Positions 13,455 through 48,977 of a DNA stretch of 64,000 nt are shown in pieces. The notes under the pieces were generated by a model that had not been told where the DNA came from, made no database searches, and worked only from the letters and a program-made list of their open reading frames with translations. The number at the start of each line of letters is the position of its first letter. Position 1 is the first letter of the stretch. The DNA lies in the IMG/VR virus record IMGVR_UViG_3300021185_003351, positions 108,974-172,973 of that record, one strand, 5' to 3'. Source of the stretch: a virus. Both the position numbers and the translations under genes were made by a program.

Positions 13455-13851
13455 AATTGCAGTTGTTGGAAATAAAGAATGGCAAAATAAAAGAAAAATA
13501 CAAAAAGTACTGTTAGAACTAAGACAAAAATTTAAAGAAGAATTAATATTAATTGGAGCTGGCGGGTCTGAAGGAGCAAATTATATGATTAGAAAATTTG
13601 CATTAGAATTTGGAATTAAATATCAAGAATATAATGCATCATATACTGGATATAATTTGTATTCAGCATTACCAGAATCATATTATGGAAAGAATTATCA
13701 CTTTTCTCAGTTATTACATCGAATGAAAATTTTAGCTGAAAATTGTGATTATTTAATGATTTTAAATAACCAAATAGATTTGAACCCACAACTGCAAACA
13801 GCATATAATAAAGTTACAAAGTTAAATAAGCCTGTTGTTGTATTAGGTTGA
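13447..13851 (+). CDS. SLOG/YspA-like (DUF2493-like) nucleotide-binding protein
   Basis: KIAVVGNK...IGAGGSEGA...CDYLM...KPVVV. Confidence 0.65.
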   Translation: MTKIAVVGNKEWQNKRKIQKVLLELRQKFKEELILIGAGGSEGANYMIRKFALEFGIKYQEYNASYTGYNLYSALPESYYGKNYHFSQLLHRMKILAENCDYLMILNNQIDLNPQLQTAYNKVTKLNKPVVVLG

Positions 13852-20219: not shown

Positions 20220-20842
20220 TACATAATCCTTATAAAATAGTAAAAATGTTCGAAGAAGAGTTGTCTAATTATACAAATGCTCCATATGTAGTTACAGTAG
20301 ACAGTTGTACTAATGCATTATTCTTAGTATGTAAATATCTAAACGTTAAACAAGTAACAATACCATCAAAAACTTATTTATCAGTTCCACAATCAATTAT
20401 TCATGCCGGTGGAGAAGTTATATTTGATAAAAGAATAAAAACTAATCATTGGAGAGGAATATATCAATTAAAACCATATCCTATATATGACGCTGCAAAA
20501 AGATTTACATCTAATATGTATATTCCAAAATCATATATGTGTTTATCTTTTCATATTAAAAAACAATTGCCAATTTGGAAAGGAGGAGCTATATTATGTG
20601 ATAATAAAGAAGCTTATGAATGGTTTAAACGAGCTAGATATGAAGGTAGAAGTGAAAAATATTATAAAGATGATGATATCGAATTTTTAGGATGGAATAT
20701 GTATATGACTCCGCAACAAGCTGCACATGGTTTAGCTATGATGCAAAATTATCCAATACATAAAGAAGATTTAGGCGAAATAAGCGGGTATCGAGATTTA
20801 ACAAAATTTACAGTTTTTAAAAATAATAAAGTTATAAAATAA
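20216..20842 (+). CDS. Compact DegT/DnrJ/EryC1/StrS sugar aminotransferase
   Basis: FEEEL, SCTNAL, YDAA, SFHIKK (PLP lysine), GGAI, GWNMYM. Confidence 0.85.
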   Translation: MIHNPYKIVKMFEEELSNYTNAPYVVTVDSCTNALFLVCKYLNVKQVTIPSKTYLSVPQSIIHAGGEVIFDKRIKTNHWRGIYQLKPYPIYDAAKRFTSNMYIPKSYMCLSFHIKKQLPIWKGGAILCDNKEAYEWFKRARYEGRSEKYYKDDDIEFLGWNMYMTPQQAAHGLAMMQNYPIHKEDLGEISGYRDLTKFTVFKNNKVIK

Positions 20843-45380: not shown

Positions 45381-46523
45381 ATGAAAGACGAAATATTTGG
45401 TTCCGTTACCACAGAAGACGGTGAGTTTATAAAAGTAGTTAGTATGGATGGCAATGACATCACGCATCTATTCAGAGATGATATGATTAAGATTGCTTAT
45501 AAAGAAGGCCAAGGCCTCAAATATAATTCAACAACAGGTAGAAGTAAAAGAATTGATTTAGACGAAGTGCCAGCACCAGCACCGCCTAAACAAGAAAAAG
45601 AAATAGTCAACGACGATCCGGTATTAGCATTTATTACCAATGCTCCTTCTATTAAGCCTGATCATTTAGAAATTACAGACATTAAATGGAAGTATCTAAT
45701 TAGATCAGCAGTTAGAGGTAAGAATATCATGATGGTAGGTCCTGCAGGATCTGGTAAGACAGAAGCAGCAAAAGCATTGCCTACGGCAACTAATAGACCA
45801 TTCTTTTATTTTAACTTAGGAGCAACTCAAGATCCTAGATCAACATTAATTGGTAATACGCATTTTAAGAACAACGAGACACTGTTTGATGAATCAGCAT
45901 TCATAAAGGCTATTAAGACAGAAAATGCTGTAATTCTTTTAGATGAGCTGTCTAGAGCACATCCTGAAGCTTGGAATATATTAATGACTGTATTAGATGA
46001 AGGCCAAAGATATTTGAGATTAGACGAAAATATTGATGCACCATTAGTAAATGTAGCTTCAGGAGTGTCTTTTATAGCTACGGCAAATATTGGAACAGAA
46101 TATACATCTACTAGAGTATTAGATAGAGCATTATTAGATAGGTTCGAAGTTATTGAAGTAGATATATTATCTAAAGAAAGAGAGCATGTTCTTTTAAGTA
46201 AAAGATTTGGCAACAAAGTTGAGGATTCATTATTAGAATCAGTAGCAGATATTGCAGATGTAACTAGAAAAGAATGGAAGTCTGATGAAGGAAAGCTTAG
46301 CACAATGATATCGACACGTATGACAGTTAGAATATGTGAGTTATTAGCAGATGGATTTACATTAGAAGAAGCTTCTGAAGTAGGTATATTACCATTCTTT
46401 GATGCATCTGGCGGAGGAGACTCTGAAAGATTGTTTGTTAAGCAAGTTATTCAGAAACATTTAGGTACCGCAGAAGAAGATATCTTTAATGTTGGAGAAG
46501 AAAAAGTAGAAGCCGAATATTAA
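45381..46523 (+). CDS. MoxR-type AAA+ ATPase (CbbQ/NirQ/CobS-like)
   Basis: GPAGSGKT, LLDELSRA, IATAN, LDRALLDRF, STR. Confidence 0.9.
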   Translation: MKDEIFGSVTTEDGEFIKVVSMDGNDITHLFRDDMIKIAYKEGQGLKYNSTTGRSKRIDLDEVPAPAPPKQEKEIVNDDPVLAFITNAPSIKPDHLEITDIKWKYLIRSAVRGKNIMMVGPAGSGKTEAAKALPTATNRPFFYFNLGATQDPRSTLIGNTHFKNNETLFDESAFIKAIKTENAVILLDELSRAHPEAWNILMTVLDEGQRYLRLDENIDAPLVNVASGVSFIATANIGTEYTSTRVLDRALLDRFEVIEVDILSKEREHVLLSKRFGNKVEDSLLESVADIADVTRKEWKSDEGKLSTMISTRMTVRICELLADGFTLEEASEVGILPFFDASGGGDSERLFVKQVIQKHLGTAEEDIFNVGEEKVEAEY

Positions 46524-46563
46524 AATATTGCAGCTATGCATTAAATAGCATCTTTCATATCTT

Positions 46564-46601
46564 AAAGGGAGTTAGACATGCGTAGGCATTAGCTCCCTTT
46601 T
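46564..46601 (+). terminator. Hairpin with T-tract, probable intrinsic terminator
   Basis: AAAGGGAGTTA...TAGCTCCCTTTT stem with inner ATGC-GTAG-GCAT hairpin. Confidence 0.65.
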
Positions 46602-46609
46602 AAAGTATT

Positions 46610-46959
46610 GTTGGGTTCTTTGACATAAATAAGAAAGGAAGCATATGGAAACAAATATGTTAATAGGAATCCTTATCGGATCCAGTGCTGTAGCTTTATT
46701 GGCATTTTTTGCTTATAGGGTAAAGACATCTTTTGATAGGGTGAATAGAAATCACGAAGATCTAAACTCAGATGTATTTAGTAGTTTAGAACAATTGAAA
46801 AATCAAGTTGATCAAATGATAGATAACATTGATAGATCATTAAACGATAGAATCGATGATGTACATAGAACAATGGATTCTAGATTTGATAAAACAGAAT
46901 CAAGAATAATATCACAAGTACAAAAGAAAAATAAATAAATAATCTTCAAAGAACCCAAC
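46610..46959. repeat. Perfect 14-bp inverted repeat (46610-46623 / 46946-46959) enclosing ORF 46645-46938
   Basis: GTTGGGTTCTTTGA ... TCAAAGAACCCAAC, followed by T6. Confidence 0.9.
46645..46938 (+). CDS. Membrane-anchored coiled-coil protein
   Basis: N-terminal TM helix, D/R-rich heptad repeats. Confidence 0.75.
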   Translation: METNMLIGILIGSSAVALLAFFAYRVKTSFDRVNRNHEDLNSDVFSSLEQLKNQVDQMIDNIDRSLNDRIDDVHRTMDSRFDKTESRIISQVQKKNK

Positions 46960-46966
46960 TTTTTTC

Positions 46967-46995
46967 TTGGATAAATGAATTAGTTTTCTTATTAT
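46967..46995 (+). promoter_or_regulatory. Class M promoter TTGGAT-N17-TATTAT
   Basis: Motif match. Confidence 0.75.
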
Positions 46996-47012
46996 ATATA
47001 AAAGAGATATTT

Positions 47013-48977
47013 ATGAAAAAGATACGCATTAGAAAGGCATTAGCCAATCCAGTTAAGACATATGAAGAGTCGGCATCTAGTTATTGGTTTGATGATATTG
47101 ATACTGATTTTACTTATGAAGTCAACAACAAGAAACAAGTTGATTACACTAAGTTAGCTTCTGCTCAACGAGCCATTGGCAATTTTGTTAGCATTGTTAC
47201 AGGTAAACAAATTCCAGTTCATTTTCAAAATAATGATCAAAGTTATACAGATGGTCGATCTGTTACTATAGGATCTAAAATAGAAGATAATAACTTTGAT
47301 GCAACTGTAGGACTAGCATTACATGAAGGCTCTCATATAGCATTAACTAATTTCAAATTATTAGATGGATGTTATATTGGAAGTAGCTTTCATAGTTATA
47401 TTGCTATGAGAGGTGGAGACCCGGATATGAATATGGTTGAGTCTGATATAATGCAAGTAAAAGATTTATTTAATTGGATAGAAGACAGAAGAATTGATTA
47501 TCATGTATATACAAATGCACCAGGATATAGAAAATATTATGAGTCAATGTACGAAAAGTATTTTAATTCTGCTATTGTTGATAAAGCATTACAATCAGAA
47601 GAAAAGACAGATGAAGATTGGGATTCATATATGTTTAGGATTATTAACTTAACTAACCCTAATAGAAAAATAGATGCATTAGAAGTATTGCCAATTGTAT
47701 GGAAAACAATCGATTTGAAAAATATCAAGAGACTTAAAACTTCAGAAGATGCATTGAATATAGCAATTGAAGTTTATAAAATAGTTTCTAAACAAGTTAA
47801 AGGATCTGCTTCAAAACAGCAACAAGATAAATCTAATAAGACGTCAAGCAAACCGCAATCAAAGACCAAGTCTATTGTTAACAGTAAGCTTTCTAATAGA
47901 CAACAAGAAAGATTAAGAAAACAAATACAAAAGCAAAAAGAATTTGTTAATGGTAAGCCTAAAAAAGTTGGGAAACTTTCAAAGAAAGACAATGCAATTG
48001 TTAAAAGCTTAAAAGAGTCTGGTACTGAAAGTAATCCGGTTAATACAGGTAAGTTTGGCTCTCATATGTATAATGTAGATGCAATTGTTATCAAAAAAAT
48101 GACTCACTCAGTTATGTGTCATATGGAATCTATATTTGATTCGAGAGGATTAAAAGAAAATAGAGAACCTAAAAGTTGGTATGGTCCTGGTGACGGAATA
48201 CAGAAAGGTATTATATTAGGCAAACAATTGGGAAAGAAATTGCAATTGAGAAATGAAGAGAAGTCATTGAAGTCTACAAGATTAAATACAGGCAAAATTG
48301 ATAGAAGATTGATATCCCAATTAGGATTCCAAAATGCTAATGTGTTTCATAGAATTGTAACCGATAGATATAAAAATTTCTTTATACATATTTCAATTGA
48401 TGCCTCCGGGTCAATGGGCGGCAGAAGATTTCGAAACGCTATTAAGTCCGCAGTAGCAATTGCTCAAGCAGCATCTATGACAACAGGCATTAGAGTTCAA
48501 ATATCTTTGAGAGGCACAAGTAATTTAGAAGGTAATTCAGAAAAAACAGTTACAGTGTATACATATGATAGCGCAGTAGATAAAATGTCTAAGATAAAAA
48601 AATATTTTCCATATCTGCAAACATTTGGATGTACACCAGAAGGGCTATCTTTTAAAAGTATTCTTCCATATATCAAAGCTGATGCTAAAGGAGATGAGTG
48701 TATATTTATTAACTATTCAGATGGAGCTCCTAGTTCAGTAACCGGATGTGCGTATACATATAATGGAATTGACTTTACTAGAAAAGTTATTAATGAAATG
48801 AAAGAAATAGGTATTAATGTGTTATCATATTTTATTGATGGACGATCGGAAGGTTGGTGTGCAGATGCATTTAGAAGAATGTATGGCAATAATGCAGAAT
48901 TCATAGATACCAGTAACCTTACTCAAATTTCAAAGTCAATTAATAAGAAGTTTTTAGAAATATCAGAAACAATATAA
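47013..48977 (+). CDS. vWA (MIDAS) protein with N-terminal HExxH domain (CobT-like MoxR partner)
   Basis: YTDG, ALHEGSH, NWIEDRRID; IDASGSM, TPE, YSDGAP. Confidence 0.87.
   Translation: MKKIRIRKALANPVKTYEESASSYWFDDIDTDFTYEVNNKKQVDYTKLASAQRAIGNFVSIVTGKQIPVHFQNNDQSYTDGRSVTIGSKIEDNNFDATVGLALHEGSHIALTNFKLLDGCYIGSSFHSYIAMRGGDPDMNMVESDIMQVKDLFNWIEDRRIDYHVYTNAPGYRKYYESMYEKYFNSAIVDKALQSEEKTDEDWDSYMFRIINLTNPNRKIDALEVLPIVWKTIDLKNIKRLKTSEDALNIAIEVYKIVSKQVKGSASKQQQDKSNKTSSKPQSKTKSIVNSKLSNRQQERLRKQIQKQKEFVNGKPKKVGKLSKKDNAIVKSLKESGTESNPVNTGKFGSHMYNVDAIVIKKMTHSVMCHMESIFDSRGLKENREPKSWYGPGDGIQKGIILGKQLGKKLQLRNEEKSLKSTRLNTGKIDRRLISQLGFQNANVFHRIVTDRYKNFFIHISIDASGSMGGRRFRNAIKSAVAIAQAASMTTGIRVQISLRGTSNLEGNSEKTVTVYTYDSAVDKMSKIKKYFPYLQTFGCTPEGLSFKSILPYIKADAKGDECIFINYSDGAPSSVTGCAYTYNGIDFTRKVINEMKEIGINVLSYFIDGRSEGWCADAFRRMYGNNAEFIDTSNLTQISKSINKKFLEISETI

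Follow-up and report, generated by a model that had tools for sequence, protein, structure and literature searches.

What role does a perfect inverted repeat play when it encloses a single small gene that has no evident promoter? The question is raised by a locus in a stretch of 64,000 nucleotides (nt) of phage DNA, here called the window, which covers positions 108,974 to 172,973 of the IMG/VR record IMGVR_UViG_3300021185_003351 and forms the 3' part of that 172,973-bp phage genome of 30% GC. Two arms on the + strand, GTTGGGTTCTTTGA (46610-46623) and TCAAAGAACCCAAC (46946-46959), are complementary at 14 of 14 positions across a gap of 322 nt, and a mismatch at either side ends the 14-bp helix sharply. 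They enclose a Shine-Dalgarno (SD) sequence, AAAGGAAG (46634-46641, + strand), located 10 nt 3' of the helix strand, and an open reading frame (ORF) for a protein of 97 amino acids (aa; 46645..46938, + strand). The right arm begins 7 nt past the stop codon and is followed directly by a run of six T (T6; 46960-46965, + strand), a candidate U-tract. The description of the repeat, the T6 run and a hairpin upstream in the initial annotation proved exact, and its report that no promoter motif precedes the ORF agreed with our sigma-70-type scan, which found no + strand promoter between the stop codon of the upstream AAA+ gene and the ORF. Comparative evidence indicates that the arms are the two strands of a conserved long-range helix of the sense transcript, the loop of which holds exactly the ribosome-binding site and the ORF. 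With a probability of roughly 0.55, we consider that this helix would act as an end-pairing clamp, which protects or defines a promoter-less mRNA and makes the gene a self-contained cassette.

The repeat is the sole perfect inverted repeat of at least 14 bp with a gap of 50-500 nt in the whole 172,973-bp genome, and its 14-mer has no second copy there with up to one mismatch allowed. The annotation had judged a relatively GC-rich pair placed in this way unlikely by chance. AT-rich random genomes of equal size, generated by a first-order Markov model with the same dinucleotide make-up, contained on average 1.27 (about 1.3) such repeats within 500 nt, and 0.017 per genome when at least 6 G/C were required. 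With this figure of about 0.02, the repeat taken alone is modestly unlikely; it is thus suggestive, not decisive, and the comparative data carry the case. With the covariation and the family-wide recurrence described below, the probability of a chance repeat without function is next to nil. Among the 270 small ORFs of the genome, only this one has a clean flank helix; the other small ORFs with strong flank duplex energies owed them to gappy matches within coding repeats and were set aside. A second member of the gene family was not found in this genome. The region 46300-47200 matched no Rfam family at E <= 1, and megablast of the region against GenBank phages gave no match.

We aligned 47 distinct sequences from the close clade of the window locus, with protein identities of 38-99%. 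The SD is invariant in these relatives. The arms are mostly invariant as well, and all changes inside them keep the pairing, either as compensatory changes or as G.U pairs. The arms of L134, GTTAGGGTCTTTGA and TCAAAGACCCTAAC, differ from those of the window by two double compensatory changes (G-C to A-U and U-A to G-C), while L152/L153 and L154 each carry one A-to-G change in the right arm which gives a U.G pair. In the more distant L159 and L162 (38% protein identity) the core is rewritten in both arms (GTTGGTGCCGTTGAC and GTCGACGGCACCCAAC): UUCUU became UGCCGU and the right arm matches it, with one bulge and one U.G. Substitutions immediately flanking the 14 bp showed no compensation. Across the alignment 98.9% of the helix cells were paired, and all 7 unpaired cells came from L159, the register of which is shifted. 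The duplex of the window arms, with 6 G-C pairs of 14, has a predicted energy of -23 kcal/mol, and swapping arms between lineages cost 9-17 kcal/mol. The helix was present in both the minimum free energy (MFE) and the centroid folds of 46601-46966 (z = -4.97), its pair probability was about 1.0 in 47 of 47 sequences, and RNAalifold found it de novo. The SD was unpaired in the predicted MFE and centroid structures and is not sequestered by the helix.

The ORF belongs, by profile search, to a large family of phage proteins of 80-153 aa, in which the proteins of the lineages compared are only about 25% identical. We drew 54 loci with distinct flanks from IMG/VR to follow the helix across this family. 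In nearly all of them a long-range helix of 9-27 bp encloses the gene, in other gene contexts too. Its left strand typically ends 17-24 nt ahead of the AUG (range 3-30), and its right strand begins 0-10 nt past the stop codon. The flank duplexes averaged -27.0 kcal/mol for matched flanks, as compared to -11.7 (standard deviation 4.1) for shuffled flanks and -15.5 for flanks combined across loci. The inner end of the helix is often a conserved core, GTTCTTTGACA paired with TGTCAAAGAAC, while the outer positions are lineage-specific and covary. Outer positions 1-5 each showed 3-5 types of Watson-Crick pair; at outer position 1, the 28 distinct arm pairs comprised 10 C-G, 13 A-U, 3 U-A, 1 G-C and 1 U-G, with no mismatch. 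At least seven lineages without the core still pair (L159/L162, L163, L181, L187, L193, L231 and L235). One of these is a freshwater homologue in another gene neighbourhood (P0126, L163-L167), in which the arms GAGTATTAGTTAGTGTTGATTTTTCC and GGAAAAATCAACACTAACAATACTT form 18 bp, a bulge and 7 bp, with a sequence unrelated to that of the window arms and no T-run after the right arm. The compensatory changes in related phages that the annotation had suggested looking for were therefore found, both in the 47 close sequences and in the wider family. The comparisons show that end-pairing is hereditary in the whole gene family and moves with the gene into differing contexts.

A helix of this kind could be selected in RNA or in DNA, and the wobble pairs allowed the two to be told apart. 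For each locus we reverse-complemented the right arm, aligned the left arm with it and scored the alignment in a way that is blind to wobble. Transition differences between the arms gave G.U on the mRNA sense strand 28 times and on the antisense strand only 2 times; these counts include related loci, with at least about a dozen lineages contributing. The 28:2 excess argues that the helix is RNA. Taken with the four U.G cases of the close clade, this bias places selection, as judged from the sequences, on RNA of the mRNA sense, and it speaks against cruciforms and against sites for recombination or protein binding. The annotation had proposed that the ends of the mRNA pair, and this is borne out on the sense strand and family-wide.

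The genomic setting of the window locus bears on the same question. The upstream neighbour is a CobS/MoxR-like AAA+ ATPase gene (45381..46523, + strand; Pfam AAA_5 2.2e-20, CbbQ_C; PHROG 249) and the downstream neighbour is a vWA/CobT-like gene (47013..48977, + strand; Pfam CobT_C 1.4e-05). We compared 80 IMG/VR relatives of the AAA+ gene, in which the two genes are usually adjacent. Their spacer follows a fixed plan: the motif TTTTTCATAGCTC comes first, next a terminator hairpin that is hypervariable and has a T-run, and last a promoter of the type TTGGAT-N17-TATAAT. The motif, as TTTTTCATAGCTC(A/G)AA, stands directly after the AAA+ stop in nearly all relatives (L011-L085); its form in the window is ATCTTTCATATCT. 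A small hairpin, TGCAGCTATGCA, lies just past the AAA+ stop at 46529-46540 of the window; its relatives read CGCA(A/G)CTATGCG, where the outer U-A to C-G is a compensatory change. The terminator-like hairpin of the window (46564-46600, + strand; a GGGAG...CTCCC stem with an inner hairpin, followed by T4, in the predicted fold) is the positional homologue of the variable terminator hairpin that follows TTTTTCATAGCTC in the relatives. The stem of this hairpin differs among relatives with compensated changes, and is wholly different between lineages (window 46524-46600, L011-L085). The next site in the promoter scan, TTGGAT-N17-TATTAT (46967-46995, + strand), lies ahead of the vWA gene, and the same type of promoter motif precedes this gene in all relatives, as well as a gene of Flavobacterium phage immuto. 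The small ORF with both arms stands between the spacer hairpin and this promoter in the sub-clade L006, L007 and L010 (L009 is cut). A metagenome scan added 59 further loci with ORFs 38-99% identical, and at all loci with enough flanking sequence (60+) the AAA+ gene precedes the ORF and the vWA gene follows it, both on its strand. The transcript of the AAA+ gene is the only evident source of read-through for the small ORF. Two other candidates for a promoter were rejected: TTGACA in the left arm as a -35 element lacks, in every lineage, a -10 element at a distance of 16-18 nt, and transcription has to include the SD. The other candidate, a T4-type late promoter (CATAAATA), is a motif that is not kept in relatives.

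An inverted repeat around a single ORF that interrupts the conserved AAA+/vWA pair, in a gene family that occurs in several genomic contexts, could be read as the terminal repeats of a mobile or invertible cassette, as the annotation had offered as an alternative, or as a pair of protein-binding sites. We consider such a DNA-level element very improbable. More than 60 clade loci keep a uniform orientation and the same neighbours, and the flanks AAAGTATT and TTTTTTCT contain no target-site duplication. The conserved end of the arms is the inner and not the outer one, and the excess of G.U on the sense strand would not be expected for DNA sites. In the close relative L008, the ORF and the left arm are missing together with the spacer motif and the hairpin, and what remains is the last bases of the ORF, the right arm and T6. 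The orphan right arm with T6 stands right after the AAA+ stop (L008:5131-5214), a natural deletion variant, and its best upstream partner is weak (-12 kcal/mol). We rejected L008 as a pre-insertion empty site, since the family-wide TTTCATAGCTC motif and the hairpin are gone while the 3' tail of the ORF and the right arm are kept; for the same reason L008 is, on its sequence, a secondary deletion and not a precise excision. A transposon with terminal inverted repeats was rejected on the lack of a duplication and on L008, although no search was aimed at recombinase genes. A DNA-level mobile or invertible cassette, like chance, is effectively excluded. Separately, L025, L026, L033, L038 and L041 carry other insertions of 0.8-2.9 kb at the same junction, which makes the AAA-vWA spacer an insertion hotspot. 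The identities of the three genes to the window are discordant, for example with AAA 87%, ORF 98% and vWA 72% in L106 and AAA 98%, ORF 72% and vWA 95% in L139. This discordance across adjacent genes implies frequent recombination, for which the conserved untranslated region (UTR) and arm sequences are likely junctions.

The preferred reading, an end-pairing clamp, accounts for the helix as follows. The gene would be a promoter-less cassette. Its transcripts would come from polymerase that reads through from upstream, here across the leaky hairpin 46564-46600, or from a tRNA operon to which the gene belongs. Processing would define the ends of the mRNA, and the helix would clamp the 5' and 3' termini together. 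The clamp would thereby hide the termini from 5'-end-dependent RNases and from 3' exonucleases, so that the message stays intact and translatable. The gene sits inside a tRNA cluster in many phages. Between the 3' end of the upstream tRNA and the first base of the left arm the distance is 0-1 nt at 9 of 9 loci; at 5 of 6 loci, 0-1 nt also separates the last base of the right arm from the 5' end of a downstream tRNA within 60 nt. With this abutment, the outer end of the helix coincides with the expected cuts of RNase Z-type and RNase P enzymes, and excision of the tRNAs would leave an mRNA with flush, base-paired termini. In mitochondria, excision of flanking tRNAs sets the ends of mRNAs, which is known as tRNA punctuation. 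The helix ends that lie 0-1 nt from tRNA genes at 14 of 15 junctions resemble this arrangement; unlike mitochondrial punctuation, the setting is a phage in bacteria and the released mRNA also has base-paired termini. Phage tmRNA genes with tag peptides ending in AVAA were called by ARAGORN downstream of the cassette in L244 (1537-1950) and L248 (1708-2092), at distances of 18 nt and about 340 nt, respectively.

A cultured phage has the same layout. A tblastn search with the family member P0144 as query found Flavobacterium phage vB_FspM_immuto_2-6A (NC_055915.1), where the order is tRNA-Cys, ACTACCGTTCTTTGA, the ORF at 20371-20676, TCAAAAGAACGGTAGT and a TTGGCT-N17-TATATT promoter. The commonest family member gave no tblastn match among GenBank phages. 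One family member is on a contig binned as Flavobacteriaceae.

Since the helix brackets a mature unit, as the stems that flank rRNA do, and often within tRNA operons, it might instead be an RNase III-type processing stem, cleavage of which would free a monocistronic mRNA from a longer precursor. Many relatives have helices of 18-27 bp, which is sufficient length. RNase III substrates usually have about two helical turns, that is about 20 bp or more. The 14 bp of the window and the 9-13 bp of L187 and L193 fall under this, and where tRNAs flank the gene, their own processing already fixes the ends, at 0-1 nt from the helix. We regard cleavage by RNase III as an unlikely function of the helix.

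In the clade of the window, a further explanation has to be weighed. T6-T7 stands directly after the right arm in all of the 50+ clade loci, including those with differing downstream sequence (L152-L159), and the helix holds the position of the canonical terminator of ORF-less relatives. A long-loop intrinsic terminator, in which the translated ORF lies within a stem made by the arms and the transcript is freed at U6, ahead of the vWA promoter, could thus be the main function in this clade, a possibility which we hold to be real but doubtful, and which is compatible with the clamp. A 14-bp stem with 6 G-C pairs and -23 kcal/mol, with the U-tract immediately after it, has the make-up of such a terminator. 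Since 7 nt separate the stop codon from the right arm, a ribosome that terminates there would sit on the inner pairs, and the outcome may depend on how closely the ribosome trails RNA polymerase. Against this, a loop of 322 nt with a translated ORF is far beyond the known geometry (loops of 3-8 nt), the structure is unlisted in the consensus scan, and L008 retains the right arm and T6 without a partner. Moreover, a T-run directly after the right arm was absent in all other lineages examined, which have a tRNA gene, a distinct canonical terminator or the next gene after the arm. The helix is kept without a U-tract outside this clade, and termination is hence not its general function. Of the terminator proposed by the annotation, the part that stands is its plausibility in this clade, where T6-7 is invariant; it does not extend to the family. 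Within the clamp reading, the helix of the window clade would most likely also form the 3' end, upstream of the vWA promoter, by acting as an intrinsic terminator with a long loop.

Several observations weigh against the end-pairing clamp. Flank pairing is weak in two members, L177 and L168. In L197, L226, L235 and L241 a canonical terminator follows the right arm, and protection of the 3' end by the helix would be redundant there. This is a hint that the helix may have a different or a further function, for example in translation or in processing. No tRNA genes were found in the genome of the window. In folds of the nascent transcript the left arm was partly engaged in transient pairs (probability of being unpaired 0.2-0.35), so that closure of the 322-nt loop would be slowed during the short pause at the U-tract; this predicted occupation of the nascent left arm also counts against the terminator. 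We infer transcript ends, half-life, in vivo structure and the effects on stability, termination and translation from comparison of sequences.

The persistence of the helix where terminators make 3'-end protection redundant would suit a translational device, in which the helix puts the stop codon beside the start site for closed-loop re-initiation, or occludes a ribosome standby site until it is opened. The tight spacing on both sides, typically 17-24 nt from the left arm to the AUG and 0-10 nt from the stop codon to the right arm, is in line with this, as are the stops in three frames just ahead of the right arm. This stop cluster, TAAATAAATAA, gives stops in 3 frames within 11 nt at 46936-46946, directly before the arm, and variants of it in relatives (CAATAATTAA) retain several stops. 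We nevertheless consider a translational device distinctly unlikely. The helix itself leaves the SD and AUG free, and our literature search gave no experimental precedent for through-space re-initiation in bacteria. Leaders, moreover, range from a strong SD to A-rich sequence: the SD AAAGGAAG of the window clade is strong and invariant, whereas an A-rich leader that lacks an SD is found in many other members, that of the Flavobacterium phage among them. For translation of the Bacteroidota type, a strong SD is atypical.

The left arm raised the question of antitermination. Its inner part, GTTCTTTGA(CAT), is a boxA-like core that is kept in most of the gene family. The annotation had noted this likeness, which was confirmed at the sequence level: GTTCTTTGACAT is identical at 9 of 12 positions to GCTCTTTAACAA, the E. 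coli boxA. The 16S leaders of Flavobacteriaceae contain a conserved element at the boxA position, AAGTTCATTTGACATATTG or AAGTTCTATTGACATATTG, with other genera more divergent. The consensus of this rrn-leader element is AAGTTC(A/T)(T/A)TTGACATATTG, to which the left-arm core is close, one indel apart. The element comes after the promoter and a hairpin, and the leader segment immediately 3' of it is the strand that pairs with the 16S-23S spacer. In the rrn leaders of L254-L258, a promoter with TATATTTG and a hairpin are followed by AAGTTC(A/T)..GACATATTGAA and then by AAATTGACAGCG, which pairs with GCTGTCAATTT of the 16S-23S spacer; this arrangement is likely the boxA and processing-stem layout of Flavobacteriaceae. 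In the window the core lies after a terminator-like hairpin. The identical 22-mer, TTTTTTGTTGGGTTCTTTGACA, heads tRNA clusters of two unrelated phage contigs (L092 near 13726-13742, - strand; L100:2898-2921), in both cases behind a terminator hairpin, and L101 has three tandem copies of a related unit (TTTTTGTTGGTCTTTTTGACGTAGGTTTAGTA). In an exact IMG/VR scan, the right arm was found in the same clade only, plus one chance match in a coding region (L090). About 8 unrelated matches of the left-arm 17-mer, mostly inside coding sequence (L091, L093-L099, L102), were treated as chance, while L092, L100 and L101 were retained. A literature search with GTTCTTTGA and boxA returned primer matches only. 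Judged at the level of sequence motifs, the boxA resemblance is more than superficial.

Such a core might serve as one half of a boxA/anti-boxA switch, where it would recruit NusB-NusE to give a termination-resistant polymerase, and the right arm would later sequester the core and reset the polymerase. The likeness to E. coli boxA and to the rrn-leader element, the 22-mer heading tRNA clusters in L092 and L100, and the retention of the core in most lineages while the outer arms vary are consistent with this switch. We give it only a slim chance, as the seven lineages named above keep the helix without the core, the motif is double-stranded in the mature fold, and hosts are identified for only a minority of the compared loci. 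Since the core-replaced lineages keep the helix, the comparisons indicate that pairing, not boxA, is the universal constraint and that the helix can do without the core. This boxA-like part of the left arm is probably a signal that is ancestral or that comes in addition to the pairing. The antitermination and clamp ideas may also be joined in a module that mimics rRNA, though we see no more than an outside chance for it: a boxA-like leader would hijack the rrn antitermination of the host during transcription of the gene in tRNA operons or beyond terminators, the anti-boxA past the stop codon would anneal and reset the polymerase, with termination at U6 in this clade, and an end-paired mRNA would be left, with termini made by RNase P and RNase Z cuts. 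If true, a phage mRNA would be matured and protected as a stable RNA is.

The protein encoded in the loop begins with an N-terminal transmembrane (TM) helix, which is joined by a long coiled-coil helix, and its C-terminal motif reads HRTMDSRFDKTESRI. Family members begin with ME(T/N)L(S/E)F(I/V)LG within the TM helix, continue with the coiled coil and end with the motif YRxxDSR(F/L/C)DK(L/F)ExK, which contains the DSRFDKLE motif. The AlphaFold (AF2) model of the 97-aa protein is a single helix over residues 2-96 (pLDDT 93.9). The sole PHROG match of the window protein at E <= 0.001 was phrog_1009, a family of unknown function (E 1e-3), and 4 of 33 family members weakly matched phrog_739, 'Rz-like spanin'. 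An N-terminal TM helix with a coiled coil would fit the architecture of an Rz-like i-spanin. In a 142-aa member (L172:1192-1620) the coiled-coil and DSRFDKFEN module is duplicated in tandem.

Complementary 5' and 3' UTR segments of one mRNA, with covariation, place the phage element beside the end-paired mRNAs of hok, hbs and icaR. In the account of hbs mRNA from B. subtilis given by Braun, Durand and Condon (2017; PMC5737220), a 14-bp pairing of the 5' UTR with the 3' UTR restricts endonuclease access and couples mRNA stability to translation. A single gene of the chromosome, hbs has promoters and a terminator of its own. The phage pairing, in contrast, covaries in dozens of lineages. Unlike that of hbs, hok or icaR, it is family-wide, lies flush with tRNA processing sites and, in the clade of the window, is joined to a U-tract. 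Like hok, with its tac/fbi pairing (PMC9841398), the phage cassette is a small membrane-protein gene with a 5'-3' closed mRNA, and in both cases the pairing was first inferred from phylogenetic covariation. In the closed form of hok, which belongs to a type I toxin-antitoxin system, the SD is sequestered through ucb, 3' trimming activates the mRNA, and the antisense RNA is Sok (PMC9841398). Unlike in hok, SD sequestration, an antisense gene and evidence of toxicity were not found for the phage cassette. In S. aureus icaR, too, a segment of the 3' UTR pairs with the 5' UTR of its own mRNA (PMC3868564), but there it pairs with the SD itself, blocks translation and triggers decay by RNase III, whereas the phage SD is free.

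Like the phage helix, the processing stems of rRNA operons are long-range pairings around a mature RNA, often in operons with tRNAs, and they have a boxA-like motif on the 5' strand or close to it. The phage helix differs in that it encloses a translated mRNA of about 300 nt, with 14 bp in the window, and in that the boxA-like motif lies inside the helix strand and not upstream of it as in rRNA leaders. The AAA+/vWA junction resembles the promoter-early stem-loop (PeSL) cassettes of T4-type phages (PMC2839356, PMC4122927), as the spacer comprises a terminator hairpin and an early-type promoter and is a hotspot for insertion or replacement of small ORFs. PeSL are direct repeats that act on DNA via recombination, whereas the phage arms are inverted, show selection at the RNA level and belong to one gene family. 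Our literature search found no description of this element, and nothing relevant came up on mRNAs of phage tRNA clusters that have inverted repeats. The arrangement looks like a portable control at the RNA level that travels with its gene, which is rarely documented in phages.

The pairing is a hereditary trait of a widespread marine phage gene family, kept by covariation despite protein identities of about 25%. It suggests a general route to 'plug-and-play' small phage genes, in which the gene brings its own RNA-level end definition and protection, and such a cassette could go behind any terminator or into a tRNA operon and would need no promoter or terminator of its own. Post-transcriptional control in Bacteroidota is poorly known, and a natural long-range helix with a boxA-like strand offers a system for the interplay of antitermination, termination and mRNA decay in this group. 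The cultured pair of phage immuto and Flavobacterium sp. LMO8 makes the question directly testable.

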